This document shows positions 2,308 through 44,195 of a stretch of 64,000 bases of DNA, in pieces. The DNA is from Candidatus Kaiserbacteria bacterium (GTDB lineage Bacteria > Patescibacteriota > Minisyncoccia > Phycocordibacterales > UBA2100). The notes under the pieces are model-generated. The model made no database searches. It saw only the letters and a list, made by a program, of their open reading frames with translations, and had not been told where the DNA came from. Location: the NCBI GenBank assembly GCA_016432285.1, contig CP066682.1, forward strand, positions 188,273-252,272, given 5' to 3'. Position 1 is the first letter of the stretch. The number at the start of each line of letters is the position of its first letter. The translations under genes were made by a program, and so were the position numbers.

Positions 2308-2485
2308 GTCGGCACGCACGCTCTGTGCGTATTCTTTTGCTTGCCCTGAGCGAAGTCGAAGGGCCGAAATATTGAATCGTGTGGCCTAGCGAACCACGTA
2401 CAGCGATCCAAAATTCCCAAAAGAACTACCGGAGCACTCAAAAGCGTTGGCGATTAGCAAATTAGTAGCTAATACAATTATTTGT

Positions 2486-3685
<1,200 letters not shown>

Positions 3686-3735: not shown

Positions 3736-3860
3736 TAGCGGCGAACATGGTGAAAGACACCAAACGTTGTGCATGTACCGTGCTTGTGCCGCACAGGTAC
3801 CATGTGTGTTATTTCCGCATACCCCTTGATCTCCGGGGCCCAATCCCTATACTTTACTTT

Positions 3861-4259
3861 ATGGTTAAGTATTGGAATCCCGCGCGGATCAAGCGGATCC
3901 GCGAACGGCCCGAGCGCAAAGAACAGCGAATATACGATGAGGCGAAGAAAGAGCGAAAGAGGCTGCTTCGTGGGATGCCAGTTGGGAGAGATCCCGAACG
4001 CTTACTCGATGTACTCGGATTGCCGTTGCGGCGCAAAATGCTAGGCCGCTTGCAAAAGAGCGGTGCGATGTCCGTCTCCAAACTTGCAGAGCCGTTCGGG
4101 CTTACGCTGTCCGCAGCACTCAAACATGTCCGCTACCTGGAGTGGTCGGGCATTGTGAAGACGAAAAAACAGGGTCGCACGCGAATCTGTTCTTATAACC
4201 CCGGCGCGCTCCCAGAGCTTGCACGCTTCCTCGAATCCCGATACTTTAATCATAAGTAA
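3861..4259 (+). CDS. ArsR/SmtB-family winged-helix transcriptional regulator
   Basis: HTH segment SVSKLAEPFGLTLSAALKHVRYLEWSGIV; ~130 aa; internal ATG at 3861. Confidence 0.7.
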   Translation: MVKYWNPARIKRIRERPERKEQRIYDEAKKERKRLLRGMPVGRDPERLLDVLGLPLRRKMLGRLQKSGAMSVSKLAEPFGLTLSAALKHVRYLEWSGIVKTKKQGRTRICSYNPGALPELARFLESRYFNHK

Positions 4260-5031: not shown

Positions 5032-5448
5032 ATGACAGCGGAAGCGACAAAGAAGCCTCGCGCCTCGCGCGCGAAGACGGCCAAGAAGGCCGACGATTCC
5101 GCTGCACCCCAAGCTCCGGCCCGCGCCAAAAAAGCGGAGGCTGCGCACCGCCTTCGCATCAAGGTCCGCGCCTACGAGCACGGCGTCCTCGATAATTCCG
5201 TGAAGCAGATCATCGACACGGCTGCCCGCTACAATGCGGAAGTCGTTGGTCCGGTGCCGCTTCCGATCGACATCAAAAAGTACACCGTCAACCGCGCCGC
5301 ATTCATCGACAAAGACTCCCGCGAGCAGTTCGAGATGCGTATCCACAAGCGCATGATCGACATCCTCAACCCAGCACCGAAAGTCATCGAAGCCCTCACC
5401 AACATCGACCTCCCTTCGGGTGTTTCGATAGATGTAAAGATGATGTAG
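5032..5448 (+). CDS. rpsJ: 30S ribosomal protein S10, with ~40-aa Lys/Ala-rich N-terminal extension
   Basis: Core HRLRIKVRAYEH...VVGPVPLP...matches S10; the only in-frame Met is at 5032. Confidence 0.9.
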   Translation: MTAEATKKPRASRAKTAKKADDSAAPQAPARAKKAEAAHRLRIKVRAYEHGVLDNSVKQIIDTAARYNAEVVGPVPLPIDIKKYTVNRAAFIDKDSREQFEMRIHKRMIDILNPAPKVIEALTNIDLPSGVSIDVKMM

Positions 5449-15611: not shown

Positions 15612-16904
15612 ATGAGCCCCGGTGCTTCATTCTTTGACTCTCGCGCCGAGCAGAGCTTTCTGCGTTTTTATCGTCGTATCTTTTCGATTGCTGAGATAGA
15701 AGGAAGTAGAGTGCTGCAGTGGGTGTTTGGCGCGACGATCCTCTCATACTTCATCGCATTTGATTCTCGGCTTTACTCCGACGCGCTCACCGTAGATGCC
15801 TTTTTATCGGGTACGCACCGATGCTGGCCATACTTTCAATCGTGCGGTGAGTGGCTCTTTCTGCGTGCGCTCCCAGCCGGCTACTCCCAAATGCTGCTTT
15901 ACATGGCGCTCTTCGGTCTTCTGGCGCTTGCCGTGTATCTCATGTACAAGAAAGAATGGGTACTGGCGCATATCGCGCTCATCCCGAGTTTCCTCTGGCA
16001 CTTCCTCGGTTCGTTCGTCCTTAGCGGAGAGCTTGCGGGCAATTATGACTACTACCTTTTTCTTCTTGCGTTCGTGTTGCTTTTTGTGCCATACAAGGAG
16101 TTCTTTCTCAAACTTCTCTTGGTGCTCTTCTATTTCCTGGCATCGTTATCGAAAATTCACGAATCGTGGATTCTCGGCACGTACTTCTCCTCGTTGAAGA
16201 CAGGATTGCCACTCTTTCCAGACTGGTCGATACCGATTTGGACCAACCTCGTGATCTTTATGGAAATGGTCGCGGCGTGGTTCCTGCTCTCGGGCCGGAG
16301 GCTACTACAGCGTGCCGTATTCATTTTTTTCGTCGCTTTTCATCTCTACTCCGGCATTTTTGTGGGATTCCGGTATCCGGCCACCGTGCTGCCGACACTC
16401 CTCATCCTCTTCGGTCCTCTCTACGCCTATACGCCGCCGCCGCTTACGCGTCGCGCACTCGCCGGGTGGATACTGGTCTCTCTCATGTTTATGGCACAAC
16501 TTTCGCCACTCCTCGTGCGGGGCGATGAGAAACTCACACTCGAAGCAAATAAGTTCGGTCTCTACATGTTTGAATCCAACCACCAGTGCGTCTCAAGCGC
16601 GACGGTATTTCTGAAGGATGGTACGCAATACGAAGTTCGGGCCGAGAGCGTTTCCGCCCGGTCGCGGTGCGATCCGTACTATTACTGGTTTTCGCTCCGC
16701 GCGCCGTGCGAGAGGGATCAAGCAATTGGGCGAATTGTGTGGACGTTTGACCACTCGATCAACGGCGGTCCGTTTCTCCGGATCGTCGACGAGCAGGACG
16801 CGTGCTCGCTTTCGTATGATCCCTTTCGACACAATGCGTGGATCAAAACGGAAACCGACGCTCCAGAGGTTATCGGATGGCCCGTAGAAAATGTCTATGA
16901 TTGA
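15612..16904 (+). CDS. polytopic membrane protein with C-terminal Cys-containing soluble domain, unknown function
   Basis: ~8 hydrophobic helices then a soluble ~140 aa; TATAAT at 15596-15601, 10 nt upstream of the ATG. Confidence 0.55.
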   Translation: MSPGASFFDSRAEQSFLRFYRRIFSIAEIEGSRVLQWVFGATILSYFIAFDSRLYSDALTVDAFLSGTHRCWPYFQSCGEWLFLRALPAGYSQMLLYMALFGLLALAVYLMYKKEWVLAHIALIPSFLWHFLGSFVLSGELAGNYDYYLFLLAFVLLFVPYKEFFLKLLLVLFYFLASLSKIHESWILGTYFSSLKTGLPLFPDWSIPIWTNLVIFMEMVAAWFLLSGRRLLQRAVFIFFVAFHLYSGIFVGFRYPATVLPTLLILFGPLYAYTPPPLTRRALAGWILVSLMFMAQLSPLLVRGDEKLTLEANKFGLYMFESNHQCVSSATVFLKDGTQYEVRAESVSARSRCDPYYYWFSLRAPCERDQAIGRIVWTFDHSINGGPFLRIVDEQDACSLSYDPFRHNAWIKTETDAPEVIGWPVENVYD

Positions 16905-17109: not shown

Positions 17110-17140
17110 CGATTTGGCGTTCAGCACCCATGATTCAAGT

Positions 17141-17392
17141 ATGGAAGTCTCCCTCCGGCGGGTCCTGAAGATCCTCGTTTACGCTCTCATGCTTGCCGCG
17201 GGGGTCATTCTCGCGTTCGTGTCATATCGGGATAAGGAAAACGCGACAGGGGGTTTAGTATCGACTGCCTACGCGGATGCGCCGTATGCGCAGAGCGCGT
17301 ATTACGGACAGGGGGGATATGGGTGGTGGGGCGGCGACGGCGGCGACGGAGACGATGACGGCGATGATGATAGTGGCGATGGCGATAGCTGA
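17141..17392 (+). CDS. module copy 2, small TM peptide (83 aa) with AYADAPY, GWWGG and poly-Gly/Asp tail
   Basis: Internal ATG 17141; motifs STAYADAPYAQSAYYGQGGYGWWGGDGGDGDDDGDDDSGDGDS. Confidence 0.55.
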   Translation: MEVSLRRVLKILVYALMLAAGVILAFVSYRDKENATGGLVSTAYADAPYAQSAYYGQGGYGWWGGDGGDGDDDGDDDSGDGDS

Positions 17393-17407: not shown

Positions 17408-18595
17408 ATGCCAGAAGCAGGAGAAGTACAGCAGCCTCAAACGCACTACGGTCGATCGATCTTGATCGGCAGTACCGTACTTCTCGTTGTCGGATTCGGA
17501 GTCGCGTACTTTCTCATCGTCATGCAGGTCCCCTCGCGCGGGGGAACTACCGGCGGAGTAGGCAGATTGCAGCCACAAACGCTCCAGCAGCTCAAAAAGG
17601 CTGGCAACTACGAGGCCGCGCTTGCGGAATACGAACGGATCATGAGCGATCCCCTTAAGGACGCGAATGAGAAAGGGTTTGCGGTCATCAGTGGAACCAA
17701 CCTCAAGTTCACGCTGACGGCGGACATAAAAGACATGATCGAGGACGTGCAGCGATTAAAGGAGGTCGTGCTTGATCCGTCGGTGGAGACTCGCGTGCGT
17801 GTCGAGGCGCTCAATACGCTTTCGGCATCCGTCTGCCGATCCGGACGAGATCCGATCATTTTCGATGAGCTCTATAAGGATGAGCCATTCAAGCGATACC
17901 TCGTGCCGGGCGATCCCGATCTCTCCGCGCGTCTCATGGCGGAGTGGTCATATGACATGTCGCCCACGTCCTTTGCCGCGATTCGTATTGCACGTTGGTA
18001 CTCCGATCAAGTATTCAGAAACGGCACGCTCTCGGGAGAGAAGGTGAGTGAATACACGGCAGAAGCAGAAAAGTATATGGAGATCGCGGGGCAGCTCGTG
18101 GAAAAGGAGCTCAAGCGCTCCACGGATCGCACGCGGAGCATTACTTATATCGCGTATCGTATGTGGACGGCGATCACCGTTGGCCGACTTGCGACGGTGA
18201 AGGACGAGTACCGGGCGCAGTACAAAACCGAATTCGAAGACTTACTGAACTTCCTCACGGCCAATAAGAACGTGGGCGTTTTCGATTACCTGTACCTGGT
18301 GCGCGAGCACTACGCGCGCTTCATGATCCGCATAGACGGCAACACCGCCGGAGCAAAGGCCCAGCTCGACATCCTTGCGCGCGAGCTCCAAGAGTTTCCA
18401 ATACCGGACTCCAGTACCTACGTGAGACTTATGCGCAACGAGTCTACGTACAATCCCGGCGGATACCTCTGGAACAACTACAAAACCCTCATGTCGATCT
18501 CGCCGAGTTTCAAAGCGACGGTAGAGGAGCTCCTCATTCCCGACCCTGAGACTATCGGCAGTTCTGCGGCACCCCTGGAAACAGCGGAGTTTTAA
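17408..18595 (+). CDS. module copy 2, ~395-aa N-terminally anchored protein
   Basis: ATG 15 nt after the peptide stop; N-terminal TM; LQQLKKAGNYEAALAEY motif shared with paralogs. Confidence 0.6.
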   Translation: MPEAGEVQQPQTHYGRSILIGSTVLLVVGFGVAYFLIVMQVPSRGGTTGGVGRLQPQTLQQLKKAGNYEAALAEYERIMSDPLKDANEKGFAVISGTNLKFTLTADIKDMIEDVQRLKEVVLDPSVETRVRVEALNTLSASVCRSGRDPIIFDELYKDEPFKRYLVPGDPDLSARLMAEWSYDMSPTSFAAIRIARWYSDQVFRNGTLSGEKVSEYTAEAEKYMEIAGQLVEKELKRSTDRTRSITYIAYRMWTAITVGRLATVKDEYRAQYKTEFEDLLNFLTANKNVGVFDYLYLVREHYARFMIRIDGNTAGAKAQLDILARELQEFPIPDSSTYVRLMRNESTYNPGGYLWNNYKTLMSISPSFKATVEELLIPDPETIGSSAAPLETAEF

Positions 18596-18599
18596 TCTT

Positions 18600-19382
18600 G
18601 TGCGAGTCGCACTCCTGTCATTACGAGGGGGCCGGTTGGCAGCCGTTGCTGTAGTGCTTGGCGTATTGGCATTCGTTGGAAGCAGCGACATGACAGTACT
18701 TCTCCAAAACGCTCAGTTACTTTTCTTTCCGTCTGCCGCCTCAGCGTATAACTTTGGCAATCAGCACTTCGACGCGCGCAGTGGATACGAATACGACATC
18801 GACCGGGCGGAGTCGCTCTACCAAGAAGCGCTCCGCATCGACCCACAGTTTCCCTACGCGCGACACCAGCTCGCCCGCATCTCATTTTTGAGGGGCGATT
18901 TCAAGAGCGCGCTTGTGCTGATCAACGAAGAGCTCTTCACGAATCCCGATCCCTCTCCGTCCTCGTACTACATCCGGGGCCTCATTGAGGGGTACGCAGG
19001 ACGCTACGACGACGCAGCCAAAAGCTACGAGCGCTATCTGGAGCGTGATCCGCGCAATTGGGCGGCGATCAATGATTACGCGTGGGTGCTCCTGCGGGCA
19101 GGGAGGTCAGAGGATGCCGCGATCGCCACCGCCGAGGGCCTCGCATATTTTCCCGAGAATCCATGGCTTTTGAACAGCAACGCGACCGCGCTTTTTGAGC
19201 TTGGCCTCACGAAGGAGGCGAGCGCCGTCATACAAAAGGCGGGGGAGAGCGCAGCTTCCATCACCGAACCAATGTGGCTCACGGCGTATCCCGGCAACGA
19301 TCCTCGGATCGCGCGACAGGGAATCGAGACGCTCCAGCGTGCGATTGCGTCCAATAAGCTCCGCTTTGCCGATCCCGAATAA
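18600..19382 (+). CDS. TPR-repeat protein with N-terminal TM/signal
   Basis: GTG start 4 nt after the upstream stop; repeats of Y..G.......A...Y...L..DP. Confidence 0.6.
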   Translation: MRVALLSLRGGRLAAVAVVLGVLAFVGSSDMTVLLQNAQLLFFPSAASAYNFGNQHFDARSGYEYDIDRAESLYQEALRIDPQFPYARHQLARISFLRGDFKSALVLINEELFTNPDPSPSSYYIRGLIEGYAGRYDDAAKSYERYLERDPRNWAAINDYAWVLLRAGRSEDAAIATAEGLAYFPENPWLLNSNATALFELGLTKEASAVIQKAGESAASITEPMWLTAYPGNDPRIARQGIETLQRAIASNKLRFADPE

Positions 19383-19416: not shown

Positions 19417-19911
19417 TTGCGCTCCATGAAGCGCGAGCGTGTGTATACTGAAGTTATGAGTTCGCGCTTCGCGACCTACGCGTTTCTCGTTTTTCTCGCG
19501 CTCACACTGCTCGTTTCTTTCGCCTCGTTTGCATACGCGCAGACCGACGAAGAGCTCCGCTCCACTGTCCGTGCGGCGATTCTCTCGGATCCACGCTCGG
19601 CAAGTATGAGCGAAGCGGAAATCGACGCGATGGTTGAAGCTCTTTCGGGTCAGGCGGCGGAGCAAGGCGTAACGGCCTCCGACATAACGTGGCAGCCGCA
19701 GCAGAGCGAGTTCCCTGCGACTTCCAAAGGGGAGCCGACCTCCTGCGCCTACCCCACACTCCTCTGCTCGCTCAATGAGGCGTTCGGCCTATCCGGATCG
19801 TCGATTCTGTTACCCACAGCTCTCGGGGTGGTCTCGGCGCTCCTCCTTGCGGTTGTTGCTATGATGATTGAACACCACCGCAAAGAGCGGTTCTCCGCAC
19901 AACGCGCATGA
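19417..19911 (+). CDS. secreted/tail-anchored small protein, paralog A (signal peptide, DEELRSTVRAAILSDPRSASMSEAEIDAMVEAL core, C-terminal TM ...MMIEHHRK)
   Basis: ~50% identical to 20906..21358; start uncertain (19417, 19426 or 19456). Confidence 0.5.
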   Translation: MRSMKRERVYTEVMSSRFATYAFLVFLALTLLVSFASFAYAQTDEELRSTVRAAILSDPRSASMSEAEIDAMVEALSGQAAEQGVTASDITWQPQQSEFPATSKGEPTSCAYPTLLCSLNEAFGLSGSSILLPTALGVVSALLLAVVAMMIEHHRKERFSAQRA

Positions 19912-20894
19912 TCCCTACCAGTACGTCCAGGTCAGTCCGAGCTCGCCTGATTGTTGCCGCGGCTCTCACGATCATCGCTCTCCTTGTATACGCGGCGACG
20001 GTTTCGAGCGACCGTGCGGGTTTCGCATCTTCGGAAGTGCAATTCGCCGACGCCTCGCAAGGCGGCGCGCTCATCGTGCCAGCTTCGTGCCCCTCGAATC
20101 CACACTACGCGGGCGAGTGCAGCGGCGGAGGTGGCGGAGGTGGCAGCAACAATCCACCCGCAGCGCCCTCAAGCAATGCCTGCATCATCGCGCTCTCTCC
20201 CTCCACCATCGTGAGCGGCCAGAGCGCGTTCATGGGCTGGTCATCCACGTACGCGATTTTCGGCATTCCCTTCGTCGTGTCGGGCACGATCACGCCGACT
20301 CCTGGGGCGGTTGCCGATGCTGGCGTAACAACCGTCAACCCGACACAGACGACCACCTACAGCGGCACTTTTACCCCAAGCGGTAGCGTGCAGGGCATAC
20401 CGCAGAGCTGGCTCACGCCCGTCAATTGTTCGGCGGCGCTCACGGTCCTCACGAGCGCACCGGGTGCGGGAGCGTGCGCGCAGGTCAACTTCTGCAACGG
20501 CAGCGCGCTCTACCAGCAGCAAACCAACTGCACTGACGTGCTCGTGCAGCAATGCCCCTACGGCTGCTCCAACGGTGCATGCCAGGGAGCCGCAGCACCC
20601 ACCGCGTTCATCAGAGCGGTGCCCTCGCTCGTGCGCGCTGGCGAGCAGAGCACGATCTCGTGGAGCTCCTCCAACGCGGCTTCGTGCAACGTCACGAGCG
20701 TACCGGCCGTCGGAGGGACCCCGTGGTCGGGTCTCTCGGGGAGTCAGGATACGCCAATCGGCTACCAGACCACCTTTACGCTCTCGTGCCTCGGCCTCAA
20801 CGGCTCCACGATCAACCGCTCTGCGGTCGTCGACATCCTCCCGGTCTTCTGCGAAGTCGGCGCACCGGATTGCGATATTCAGCCCGGACAATAA
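19908..20894 (+). CDS. membrane-anchored secreted Cys-rich protein (328 aa)
   Basis: ATGA overlap with the upstream gene; N-terminal TM; poly-Gly; ~18 Cys; Thr/Ser-rich. Confidence 0.5.
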   Translation: MIPTSTSRSVRARLIVAAALTIIALLVYAATVSSDRAGFASSEVQFADASQGGALIVPASCPSNPHYAGECSGGGGGGGSNNPPAAPSSNACIIALSPSTIVSGQSAFMGWSSTYAIFGIPFVVSGTITPTPGAVADAGVTTVNPTQTTTYSGTFTPSGSVQGIPQSWLTPVNCSAALTVLTSAPGAGACAQVNFCNGSALYQQQTNCTDVLVQQCPYGCSNGACQGAAAPTAFIRAVPSLVRAGEQSTISWSSSNAASCNVTSVPAVGGTPWSGLSGSQDTPIGYQTTFTLSCLGLNGSTINRSAVVDILPVFCEVGAPDCDIQPGQ

Positions 20895-20905
20895 TCCTCA
20901 ATACT

Positions 20906-21358
20906 ATGCACGCATATCTGAAACTTCGCACCGCATTCATCGTTACGCTTGCCCTCATCACCCTGAGCGCGCTTCCGCTCTTTGCCCATGCGCAGAGCGA
21001 CGAGGAGCTGCGCTCCACGATTCGCGCCGCAATCGTCGCAGATCCCCGCTCGGCCAGCATGAGTGAGGCGGAAATCGACGTGATGGTGGAGGCACTCGCC
21101 ACACAGGCGAAGGCCACCGGCGTCACGGCACGCGACGTCGAGAGTGCCGCGCGGGCGAGTCAGAATACACAGCGCCGCTCACCGTACGCGAGCGAATGCA
21201 CGAGCTTCATCTGCAAGGTCAACGAGGCGTTCGGCATCACCGGCAACGCAAGTGTGATCGCGGTTGCCATGGGCGTGACCGCCGCCGTGCTCCTCTTTGT
21301 GATCGGCATGCTCATCGAACACCATCGCCGCAAGCTCACAGGCTCCAATCCGCTCTAG
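20906..21358 (+). CDS. paralog A-prime of 19417..19911
   Basis: Shared motifs AQSDEELRSTIRAAIVADPRSASMSEAEIDVMVEAL, NEAFGITG and C-terminal TM MLIEHHRRK. Confidence 0.5.
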   Translation: MHAYLKLRTAFIVTLALITLSALPLFAHAQSDEELRSTIRAAIVADPRSASMSEAEIDVMVEALATQAKATGVTARDVESAARASQNTQRRSPYASECTSFICKVNEAFGITGNASVIAVAMGVTAAVLLFVIGMLIEHHRRKLTGSNPL

Positions 21359-21375: not shown

Positions 21376-21404
21376 TTGCATTTCACGGGGCGCGCCTGTA
21401 TAGT
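21376..21404 (+). promoter_or_regulatory. promoter TTGCAT-17nt-TGTATAGT for the rplC operon
   Basis: -35 at 21376-21381; extended -10 at 21397-21404. Confidence 0.45.
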
Positions 21405-21410
21405 GCCCGC

Positions 21411-21487
21411 ACATTCTCTTTGAGAATGTCCCATGTCCCCATACGGGACCAATGGTTCGGGAAAACGCCCGCCATTGTGGGCGTTTT
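21411..21487 (+). promoter_or_regulatory. structured 5' leader of the rplC operon: three hairpins, the last (AACGCCCgccattgtGGGCGTTttgt) terminator-like, 12 nt before the ATG
   Basis: Hairpins at 21411-21429, 21435-21449 and 21463-21487 read directly; candidate attenuator. Confidence 0.35.
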
Positions 21488-21498
21488 GTCATAACACT

Positions 21499-22107
21499 AT
21501 GAAATTCATGCTCGGCACCAAGGGTCGTATGACGCAGATTTTCGATGAAAGCGGCGTCGTGAAGGCCGCGACGATCGTCGTCGCGGGGCCTCTCACCGTG
21601 ACACAGGTGAAAACCAAGGATAAGGATGGTTACGCCGCCGCGCAGGTGGGCTTTGGATCCATGAAGGAAAAGAACGTGTCGCAGGCAAAAAAGGGCCACC
21701 TCAAGGACCTCGCGTTTTCTCGGCATCTTCGAGAGTTTCAGCCGGAGGGCGAGGTGAAGCGCGGGGATTCCATCGACGTGTCGATCTTCGCGCCGGGCGA
21801 CACGGTCGCCGTTTCGGCGATCTCCAAGGGCAAAGGATTCCAGGGCGTCGTAAAGCGACACGGCTTTTCGGGCGGCCCCCGCAGCCACGGCCAGAAAAAT
21901 AAGGAGCGCGCACCCGGCTCCATCGGTGGCGGCGGACGCGCGGGTGGCCGCGTAGTGAAGGGCATGCGGATGGCTGGTCGCATGGGAGGAGATCGGATCA
22001 CCGTCAAAAACCTGAAAGTCTTGCAGGTCGACCCTGCGTCGCACACGCTTCTCATTTCCGGCGCCATTCCCGGCTCACCCGGCACGCTCGTCGAGATTCG
22101 CGGCTAA
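21499..22107 (+). CDS. rplC: 50S ribosomal protein L3
   Basis: MTQIFDE...; gene order; internal ATG at 21499. Confidence 0.95.
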   Translation: MKFMLGTKGRMTQIFDESGVVKAATIVVAGPLTVTQVKTKDKDGYAAAQVGFGSMKEKNVSQAKKGHLKDLAFSRHLREFQPEGEVKRGDSIDVSIFAPGDTVAVSAISKGKGFQGVVKRHGFSGGPRSHGQKNKERAPGSIGGGGRAGGRVVKGMRMAGRMGGDRITVKNLKVLQVDPASHTLLISGAIPGSPGTLVEIRG

Positions 22108-42193: not shown

Positions 42194-43573
42194 CTATTCG
42201 TAGATCTCCTCGTCATCGTACGGCGGCGGACTCCTGAAGCTGAAGGGCTTCAGATAGTTGAGAATACCGAGCACGGTGCCTTTTAAATCGTTGAGCACTT
42301 TCAAGAGGTTGGATTGCGGCTCCGTGGTGCCCGTACCCGCGTTGCCCCTGAAGTCGTCGGAGATAAATGTCTCCTGCGAGGTAGGCACGAGCGTGCCCGC
42401 GTTTGTACCTCCCTGCGAGACTTGTTGCTGCTGCGAGGCTTGGAGCCGCGCCGCATCCTCTGCACTCACCACAATGATGGGCGGGGCAATCTCCGGTTGC
42501 TGCTGGTTCGCGTTGGGGCCCGCGATCGAATTGATCTGATCGATCGCTGACACTTTTGTCGTGCTCGTGCTGCTCGTCCCTTTCGGCGCGTTCTTCAGTG
42601 CTTCCGCGAGTAAGTCGGATGTGGGCGAAGGATTGCATTCCGTGCCCGTGCAGCCGTTGGGGCAGCTCTGGTAGAGCTGATCGACGCAGGTGCTCGTGCG
42701 GTAGTAGCGATCCGACCCGAGGCAGCGAAACGCGGGCGCGCAGACCCCCTGCTGGTACGCAGTGGAATTGACTGCACTCGCGGGGGGAGGGGCCGACCCT
42801 ACTGGTGCGGCGCCGCCACTCGGAGCTCCTCCACCACCTCCGCCGCCCGGCGGCGCACTTCCGCTGTTTTGGATCGCATTACAAGGGACTCGCAAACCGT
42901 CGGGAAGCGTGCACATCTGCTGCGATTGGTCGCCTTTTCCGAGGAGTCCTTCTCGGAGCGCTCCGGAGATGCCCGAAGAGGGGGAGAGGCTCAAGCCTGG
43001 CGCCGCGCCTCCTGAAGCAATTTCGCCCGCGACGGCACCGGATGGCTCGATGTGCCATGGCTCGTTGCCCAAGCGGAATGTCAGTCCGACTCGTGCGGCC
43101 GCCTGCTGGGGAATGCCATCGTCAGGCATATTACAGAGATCGGCCGCGAGCCCCTTATTGTGATTGGAGCCGCCTGGAGGCGCCACCCATTTTCGCGCTA
43201 TCTCCGCGCTTCCATATTTTGCAAGCGCTCGCTGCCAAAGCACCGCTTGTGTCGCGTTGGATCGGTAGGCGCTGTTGATACAGACACTCGGGTACGCGGC
43301 AAGCAATTTGGCGAGGCGGCACCCGAAGTCGCCATTCAGTTTGTTGATACCATCGGCGCCCTCGACCGCGCTTTTGGGGCCGGGCGTGTAGCGCGAGCGG
43401 AGCAATGGATACGGATTGCTTTCGCAGCCGCCGGTTACCTTTTTCAGATCCTCCGCATTCAGGATGTCGGCGTTGCCCTCAATGAGCGCGGCAAACGACG
43501 GCAGCGCGAGCGAAAGCGCGATAAGCGGCACGAGGAGAGCGATCAGTGCGTGGGATTTTTTGCGACTCGGCAT
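42194..43573 (-). CDS. secreted peptidase M15 (VanY-like D-Ala-D-Ala carboxypeptidase fold) with Cys-rich and Gln-rich C-terminal regions
   Basis: Signal peptide; SNHNKGLAADL and EPWHIEP zinc-ligand motifs. Confidence 0.7.
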   Translation of the reverse strand: MPSRKKSHALIALLVPLIALSLALPSFAALIEGNADILNAEDLKKVTGGCESNPYPLLRSRYTPGPKSAVEGADGINKLNGDFGCRLAKLLAAYPSVCINSAYRSNATQAVLWQRALAKYGSAEIARKWVAPPGGSNHNKGLAADLCNMPDDGIPQQAAARVGLTFRLGNEPWHIEPSGAVAGEIASGGAAPGLSLSPSSGISGALREGLLGKGDQSQQMCTLPDGLRVPCNAIQNSGSAPPGGGGGGGAPSGGAAPVGSAPPPASAVNSTAYQQGVCAPAFRCLGSDRYYRTSTCVDQLYQSCPNGCTGTECNPSPTSDLLAEALKNAPKGTSSTSTTKVSAIDQINSIAGPNANQQQPEIAPPIIVVSAEDAARLQASQQQQVSQGGTNAGTLVPTSQETFISDDFRGNAGTGTTEPQSNLLKVLNDLKGTVLGILNYLKPFSFRSPPPYDDEEIYE

Positions 43574-43580
43574 ATTGTAG

Positions 43581-44195
43581 CTACGCACCCCCGCACGCGG
43601 TCCACATGCCGCGCTTCAACTCTCTCGCCGCCGCCTCTGCGGACTTGAAATCGTCTTGATACTTGTAGGCAATTCCTTTGAATGTGTACTCGCGTCCGTA
43701 TCCTCCGGAGATGAGGTACTCGTTGACGAGTACGCCGTCCGGATTCGCGCTCGTCGGCACATACACATACGCGAGGAGGCGGCCGTACGAGTCGTAGAGG
43801 TTTTGCGTCGGGTCGGTTTCGATCCGCACCGACGAGCCGCCAAGGAGCTTTTGCGCTTCGTCGGTAGCCTCCTTTGCAAAGCACTCGCGCGGCTCGGCCA
43901 TTTCTGGGGTGTCGACGCCGATGAGACGGATGGAAACCGTCTTGTCTCCGTTTCTGATCGAAAGCGTATCGCCGTCGGTTACTTTCGCGACCGGATACCA
44001 TTGGTACGCCGGGACGTAGACTTGCTTTTCGGCTTTCTTCACGTTACCCGGTGCCTCGCCGACCATCTCTTGCGTTGGCTGTCCTGAACCGGATTTGATT
44101 TTGAGCGTGGCTGAGACCGCCTGGTATCCGAAGAGAACGATGACGCCGACGCCGATCACCGAGGTAACGAGCGTGGCGATCTGCTTGGCGCGCAT
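43581..44195 (-). CDS. membrane-anchored thermonuclease (SNase-like)
   Basis: VTDGDTLSIRNGDKTVSIRLIGVDTPE; minus-strand TGcgcTACAAT promoter 6 nt upstream. Confidence 0.8.
   Translation of the reverse strand: MRAKQIATLVTSVIGVGVIVLFGYQAVSATLKIKSGSGQPTQEMVGEAPGNVKKAEKQVYVPAYQWYPVAKVTDGDTLSIRNGDKTVSIRLIGVDTPEMAEPRECFAKEATDEAQKLLGGSSVRIETDPTQNLYDSYGRLLAYVYVPTSANPDGVLVNEYLISGGYGREYTFKGIAYKYQDDFKSAEAAARELKRGMWTACGGA

Follow-up and report, generated by a model that had tools for sequence, protein, structure and literature searches.

We analysed a 64,000-nucleotide stretch of contig CP066682.1 (hereafter the window), which belongs to a Candidatus Kaiserbacteria metagenome-assembled genome (MAG). Encoded ahead of the ribosomal protein gene rplC are two small paralogous membrane proteins, A and B, and between them a cysteine-rich middle protein (MID; Table 1). 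All three open reading frames (ORFs) were found where a preliminary description of this DNA had placed them. For A, the frame and stop codon stand, but ATG 19456 (the NCBI annotation) or ATG 19426 is a likelier start than the TTG at 19417. The stop codon of A overlaps the start codon of the MID gene in an ATGA (19908-19911), the coupling reported earlier, and the start of B lies 12 nt 3' of the MID stop codon.

Table 1. Coordinates of the genes and elements discussed, in window positions (TM, transmembrane)
Feature	Position	Strand	Description	Basis
Small protein A	19417..19911	+	Extra, upstream paralogue; NCBI gene HYS26_01160 (151 aa)	ORF, BLASTP
MID	19908..20894	+	328 aa, predicted Ig-like, 14 Cys; NCBI gene HYS26_01165	AlphaFold2, Foldseek, motif search
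Small protein B (P0004)	20906..21358	+	150 aa, architecture as A; NCBI gene HYS26_01170	AlphaFold2, synteny, neighbour-joining tree
X395	17408..18595	+	395 aa, N-terminal TM and helical domain; first gene of the X395-TPR-MID-small block	Synteny
TPR protein	18600..19382	+	260 aa, N-terminally membrane-anchored; upstream neighbour in most related loci	Pfam and NCBIfam scans, synteny
Polytopic membrane protein	15612..16904	+	430 aa	About 7-9 hydrophobic segments, C-terminal Cys-containing domain
Promoter-like element	21377..21405	+	TTGCAT-N17-TATAGT, between the stop of B and the rplC leader	By eye, recurs in relatives
Leader RNA candidate	Core 21428-21492	+	Before the rplC start codon, ATG 21499	RNAalifold, covariance model

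A and B are identical at 70 of 136 aligned residues (51%, with 73% positives; BLASTP E=6e-48), close to the earlier estimate of 50%, and every motif that had been quoted for the pair occurs in both copies (DEELRST[VI]RAAI[LV][SA]DPRSASMSEAEID[AV]MVEAL, NEAFG[LI][ST]G and M[ML]IEHHR[KR]). The DNA of the two genes is only 56% identical (0.56, 0.72 and 0.42 at codon positions 1, 2 and 3), and they share no exact match longer than 13 nt. The duplication is thus old, and purifying selection acts on both copies. An assembly artefact or a recent duplication is ruled out by the same identity and match length, the test for near-identical copies came out negative as the divergence noted earlier had implied, and a pseudogene reading is ruled out because both reading frames are intact. 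The duplication in itself is ordinary.

The two small proteins share one architecture. A short positive N-region is followed by a hydrophobic segment ending in A-Y-A/Q in A and A-H-A/Q in B (the slash marks the putative cleavage site), then by about 60 acidic, helical residues, a variable linker, a Cys pair and NEAFGxxG. At the C-terminus are a 22-residue TM helix (117-138 of 150/151) and a basic, His-containing tail of 12-13 residues. In A, the signal peptide reads MSSRF...FAYA/Q, the Cys pair is Cys97-x6-Cys104, the following motif is NEAFGLSG and the tail is EHHRKERFSAQRA. Net charge is -9 and -3 in the ectodomains of A and B, and +2 and +3 in their tails. The AlphaFold2 model of B is all-helical with a predicted local distance difference test score (pLDDT) of 79.7, and the small-protein model reaches 88-95 at residues 31-70, the core of the ectodomain.

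We predict that A and B are type I bitopic, Sec-dependent membrane proteins with a signal peptide that would be cleaved. Sequence rules, charge and the topology of natural gene fusions (below) all support a signal peptide, an extracytoplasmic N-domain, a stop-transfer TM helix and a positive tail. In the fusions, the small-protein domain is joined to a disulfide-rich Ig-like ectodomain with no intervening TM helix, so that the helical domain must lie outside the cell and the tail in the cytoplasm; an N-in orientation is not supported. The signal-peptide-like N-termini and C-terminal TM helices described earlier are thus present, but the term tail-anchored is not retained. Like tail-anchored proteins, A and B cross the membrane once, by a helix that stops about 15 residues or less from the C-terminal end. 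Unlike them, they carry a signal peptide and an extracytoplasmic N-domain, and would be inserted by the Sec route as type I proteins rather than post-translationally by the tail.

No credible match for A or B was found in sequence searches of Pfam, NCBIfam and PDB. At E<=0.1 the NCBIfam scan returned only noise for A (UsfY, Bd0108) and nothing for B; weak recurring matches to LacAB_rpiB and DUF4199 fell below threshold and were also taken as noise. The earlier statement that no family is recognised therefore holds for curated libraries, but not for profile searching. A word-indexed protein search recovered 18 relatives of the small protein, and a profile search of 1.84 billion representatives recovered 297 at E<=1e-3 (81 at E<=1e-30), so that the family comprises at least 297 clusters at 50% identity. 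All of its genome matches fall in MAGs of Kaiserbacteria or Parcubacteria, some of which carry the label 'Saccharibacteria' in third-party annotation (TPA) assemblies. The consensus of 150 members consists of a signal peptide ending in AQ, dLrATIRAAILSDPRtA.lSpAQlDAMV.AL..eA.aQGvTA.DItWRP, C..p.FLC.lN.AFGFdGsD, a TM helix and a tail. The hydrophobic N-terminus with its A-x-A/Q site is kept across the family, and in 59 of the 150 members at least three His residues occur within the last 35.

MID is, as described earlier, a Cys-rich protein with features of export. It contains 14 Cys (4.3%) and is rich in Ser (13%), Ala (13%), Gly (11%) and Thr (9.5%). An N-terminal hydrophobic helix (signal peptide or anchor) leads into the motif SSEVxFxDxSxxGxxIVPASCPSxPHxxGEC, which is strikingly invariant and falls in a low-confidence part of the AlphaFold2 model. 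There follow a first Ig-like domain, a six-Cys mini-domain, a second Ig-like domain and a C-terminal FCEVGAPDC extension. The model has an overall pLDDT of 80.5 and about 90 in its two beta domains. Foldseek comparison with PDB gave 25 matches at E<=1e-3 (E about 1e-4), nearly all of Ig, FN3, MG or PKD type; they include invasin/intimin, PKD/S-layer and macroglobulin domains and are generic. MID is thus predicted to contain two Ig-like beta-sandwich domains, an assignment drawn from the structural model. Lacking are credible matches in Pfam, NCBIfam or PDB sequence searches (no Pfam Big or PKD model reached threshold), and a word-based protein search with the 64-aa N-terminal motif region also returned nothing. 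The homology and structure checks proposed earlier therefore gave an Ig-like prediction for MID, and an all-helical model with no curated family for A and B.

The 14 Cys of MID form seven putative pairs, module by module, and the Cys of MID and the small proteins make up even, module-wise sets, as expected of extracytoplasmic disulfides. A DsbA-like gene occurs within the block at one related locus (L005), and an enrichment of MdbA-like/VKOR oxidoreductases has been reported for CPR (Candidate Phyla Radiation) bacteria (bioRxiv 10.1101/335083).

We also identified a second copy of the six-Cys mini-domain (CxxxxFCxGxxL…CxxGCxxGxC) elsewhere in the window, at 42632-42748 on the minus strand inside a large ORF at 42194..43588 (41% identity over 39 aa by tblastn). 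This suggests that the mini-domain may be a reusable disulfide-rich module of exported proteins in this genome.

The ORFs of all fetched related loci were compared with the window proteins. About 20 distinct loci have the small gene, on its own or as part of a fusion, as the final same-strand gene ahead of rplC (L025 has one extra gene between them), and the typical order is X395-like, TPR, MID-like, small, rplC. A gene with the MID motif lies directly 5' of the small gene or is fused to it in 12 loci (motif search), and BLAST identified a MID-like gene in three more.

Five representatives encode a MID-type protein and a small module as one polypeptide: P0067 (425 aa), P0076 (488 aa), P0088 (481 aa), P0074 (727 aa) and P0064 (a fragment). 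The Ig domain is present in all five, the PVFCExGxxGC tail in all except P0088, and the N-terminal motif in P0067, P0076 and P0088 but not in P0074 or P0064. An Ala/Ser/Gln-rich linker then leads into a complete small-protein module. The fusions are collinear with window MID and B placed end to end, the linker standing in place of the signal peptide of B and sometimes keeping a remnant of it (AQAQ/S.DEL). Window MID ends in FCEVGAPDCDIQPGQ and a stop codon (…DIQPGQ), the exact point at which P0064 runs on as FCETGVPGCNNPPGQSNAV (…NNPPGQSNAV…). Fused genes occupy the orthologous locus, immediately 5' of rplC in L022, after X395-like and TPR genes in L023, and in the order TPR-x-fusion-rplC in L026, and they represent at least four independent clusters there. 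By the classical Rosetta-stone argument, these fusions indicate a joint action of MID and the small protein in a ratio of roughly 1:1.

Our preferred reading, to which we give a probability of about one half, takes the small protein as the membrane-anchor or stalk module of an Ig-like surface protein, encoded by a separate gene in most genomes and duplicated here. The signal peptide would export the small protein, leaving the helical ectodomain outside, a single TM helix in the membrane and the short basic, His-containing tail in the cytoplasm. The Cys-x(4-8)-Cys/AFGxxG region would form the juxtamembrane segment, and the small protein would hold the adjacent disulfide-rich Ig-like protein at the membrane. 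In some Kaiserbacteria, Ig-like protein and anchor would be one polypeptide, and in most the products of two adjacent genes. In the window genome and one relative the anchor would have been duplicated, with a second, translationally coupled copy 5' of the Ig-like gene, and A and B may serve as a heteromeric anchor. Together with the membrane-anchored TPR and X395 proteins, this would constitute a lineage-specific cell-surface gene block between rpsJ and rplC. Physical association of MID with A and B is the expectation from the fusions and gene order, and a surface or adhesion role would be the likely biological function.

Several observations weigh against this reading. Four loci (L007, L015, L020, L025) have the small gene before rplC with no MID-motif neighbour, so that the small protein may function independently of MID, and in L009, L013 and L016 the neighbour shares the C-terminal Ig domain only. 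Conservation in the small-protein family is highest in the helical ectodomain, which suggests more constraint than a passive anchor needs, and fold searches with the small protein gave nothing informative. The N-terminal helix of MID, if uncleaved, could anchor MID itself. In an alternative reading, the small proteins are autonomous extracytoplasmic membrane proteins, acting as a scaffold or receptor for TPR/X395 or as a sensor that signals inward through its His-rich tail, with a linkage to MID that is positional only. In keeping with this, the small gene is the more constant of the two, as the four loci without a MID-motif neighbour show, the ectodomain is strongly conserved, and an HxHGHHP tail is conserved in many members. 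However, the cytoplasmic tail is only about 12 residues long and the His motif is not kept in the window copies, the locus has neither a regulator nor a kinase gene linked to it (Pfam and NCBIfam scans, window neighbours), and the independent fusions to MID at the orthologous locus argue for a joint function. We consider the autonomous role unlikely.

The C-terminal part of the small protein (C-x-C/AFGFxGxD, TM helix, basic tail) might instead be a new sorting signal, at which a sortase- or rhomboid-like enzyme cleaves and attaches the domain, or a fused Ig protein, to the envelope. A motif, TM helix and basic tail do stand in this order at the extreme C-terminus, a 16-sequence alignment shows no variation at the F, G and G of AFGxxG, CxnC..FG is retained in 143 of 150 members, and in the fusions the module ends a surface protein. 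Yet the conserved unit, at about 120 aa with a folded helical domain, is far larger than known sorting signals, and none of the NCBIfam models for CTERM or LPXTG sorting domains matched it. The locus has no conserved gene for a candidate processing enzyme: among neighbours in the window and in about 20 loci we saw no sortase, exosortase or rhombosortase, and the polytopic membrane protein has a homologue (45% identical) near the block in L019 only. This alternative is improbable.

The genes were also considered as a bacteriocin/immunity or RiPP-type (ribosomally synthesized and post-translationally modified peptide) locus, with the Cys-rich protein as toxin or precursor and the small proteins as immunity factors. 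A secreted Cys-rich protein flanked by small membrane proteins has that appearance, and genes for YcaO, nitroreductase and MbnB/TglH-like proteins lie within a few kb in some relatives. These neighbours, however, are variable, on the opposite strand and absent from the window, about 20 lineages have kept the locus by vertical descent at a single chromosomal position, and MID is predicted to be a 300-aa tandem Ig-fold protein. Fusion of toxin to immunity factor would be self-defeating, and fusions recur. We therefore rejected this idea as very improbable.

The arrangement in the window had been described as a local duplication bracketing a cargo gene, which the comparison does not support. Most relatives have an Ig-like gene followed by one small gene before rplC; this pair is the ancestral unit ([Ig-like Cys-rich gene][small gene]-rplC), A is the extra copy, and the middle gene is most likely a partner rather than cargo. 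The synteny check proposed earlier places the small gene next to rplC in nearly all loci, but a second small gene 5' of MID occurs in just two lineages, the window and L001/L002, among the approximately 20 loci. L001 has the same ATGA junction, and its upstream copy has neither the Cys pair nor the AFG motif. In a neighbour-joining tree, window A and B are sisters, and MIEHHR[KR] is exclusive to them; B occupies the ancestral position (directly after MID, last before the rplC leader) and A is nearer the family consensus. Either the duplication took place in the lineage of the window, or an older duplication shared with L001 was followed by concerted evolution. The common ATGA junction favours a shared event.

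The block thus interrupts the S10 operon at its rpsJ-rplC junction, as an insertion specific to this lineage. In loci with a short flank (L007, L009, L013, L025) rpsJ lies 0.3-3 kb upstream, with the small gene before rplC, and in relatives the insertion spans 0.3-8 kb and ends with the small gene. In the window (rpsJ at about 5146..5448, rplC ATG at 21499) the insertion has grown, and about 16 kb of non-ribosomal genes separate the two. The insertion appears to be a Kaiserbacteria-wide synapomorphy. Besides the X395-TPR-A-MID-B block, the window insertion includes genes for a Na+/solute symporter, a PQQ-like beta-propeller and the polytopic membrane protein. For this last protein and X395 no family or PDB match was found (none in Pfam even at E<=10, nor, for the polytopic protein, in NCBIfam at that cut-off).

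Directly 5' of X395 (17138-17392, plus strand) is a gene for a small protein with a single TM helix and a Gly/Trp/Asp-rich tail (…GGYGWWGGDGGDGDDDGDDDSGDGDS), of which a weak homologue is encoded at the same position in L003/L004. Neighbourhoods of relatives (L003 1-2034, L005 972-5172, L001 467-1327) contain genes for YcaO, nitroreductase, MbnB/TglH-like (DUF692), DsbA-like thioredoxin and rhodanese proteins, at varying positions and with none in the window; these possibly have RiPP or thiol-redox functions. Between tuf (2447..3685) and rpsJ we identified an ArsR/SmtB-type metalloregulator gene (3747-4259, plus strand; NCBIfam score 53.0, cut-off 55).

About 120 nt separate B from rplC, a spacer that is conserved among related loci, and the rplC start codon is ATG 21499, not 21433. 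The block had been described as lying just upstream of an rplC promoter. A generic sigma-70 scan did not call the promoter-like element, but visual inspection of 14 related leader sequences shows TTGCAT-N17/18-TATA[GC]T at this position in about 10 of them. Downstream of it is a leader RNA candidate made up of two hairpins. The first (CCAUGUCCC-loop-GGGACCAAUGG) hardly varies between loci; the second is GC-rich, ends in a U-run and directly abuts the rplC ATG. The loop of the first hairpin tolerates base-paired insertions (L003, L008, L009, L016). The structure is supported both by RNAalifold and by a covariance model; pairing holds in 96.8% of cells, versus 28-45% with the partners slid, and covariation is found mainly in the terminator stem. 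The covariance model matched exactly one copy per locus, always before rplC, in 19 related loci, including loci left out of model building, and in three metagenome loci with the same gene order; it matched none before rpsJ. Those three were the only ones of 80 from a metagenome pattern scan for the hairpin, mostly chance matches, to pass the covariance model.

No match to the rplC leader was found in Rfam 15, and a published survey of ribosomal-protein leaders lists an L4 leader before rplC only in Archaeoglobi (Eckert & Weinberg, 2020, PMC7247131). A literature search on CPR ribosomal leaders found nothing specific. From its sequence, the leader looks like a candidate ribosomal-protein attenuator (L4/L3-type) with a terminator-like end. 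As a plausible new autoregulatory RNA, it may equal or exceed the surface module in interest for RNA biologists.

Kaiserbacteria and other CPR bacteria are uncultivated and probably episymbiotic. To our knowledge, their envelope and host-contact proteins are almost wholly uncharacterised, and our literature search on Kaiserbacteria and CPR surface proteins found nothing specific. The combination of anchor, Ig-like ectoprotein and TPR partners is a defined, testable surface module, and the fusions are evidence on which of its parts work together. The near-universal rpsJ-rplC junction of the S10 operon is normally contiguous, and the insertion in it is a conserved genomic landmark by which the module can readily be found in metagenomes. 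A wider proposal, which we regard as doubtful, is that the small module is a previously undescribed CPR anchoring/sorting domain that would build, with MID, TPR and X395, an abundantly expressed Kaiserbacteria-specific surface structure (S-layer-like or for host attachment), its genes fixed in the rpsJ-rplC junction and A and B forming a heteromeric anchor. The module itself is real, uncharacterised and lineage-specific, with a split/fused anchor relationship, a useful but incremental advance.

Searches returned no homology that would place the small protein or MID in a known family, and comparison with known systems is thus one of layout and apparent function. MID resembles bacterial Ig-like (Big/PKD/invasin-intimin) adhesins in its two predicted beta-sandwich domains, but differs by the invariant IVPASCPSxPH..GEC motif, by the six-Cys mini-domain and by a putative TM anchor module in place of an outer-membrane beta-barrel or LPXTG. 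The small module shares a motif, TM helix and basic cluster at the C-terminus with the substrates of LPXTG/sortase, PEP-CTERM/exosortase, PGF-CTERM/archaeosortase and GlyGly-CTERM/rhombosortase systems; unlike these signals, it includes a conserved folded domain, can be encoded by a separate gene that supplies a signal peptide, and has no linked processing enzyme. The closest functional analogy is with archaeal stalk and canopy proteins such as SlaB and SlaA of the Sulfolobales. There, a Sec-exported stalk (signal peptide, one TM helix at the C-terminus) retains a surface protein rich in beta-sandwich domains, the canopy, which is the product of an adjacent gene. The proteins differ: our searches found no similarity in sequence or fold, the ectodomain of the small protein is helical and about 60 aa long rather than built of beta-sandwich and coiled-coil domains, and SlaA/SlaB are archaeal whereas the CPR system is bacterial and shows no sign of a lattice. 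As in the SlaB/SlaA pair, an exported membrane protein stands next to a separately encoded beta-sandwich protein. In other archaeal surface glycoproteins the TM anchor forms the C-terminal end of the surface protein itself, as it does in the fused Kaiserbacteria forms.

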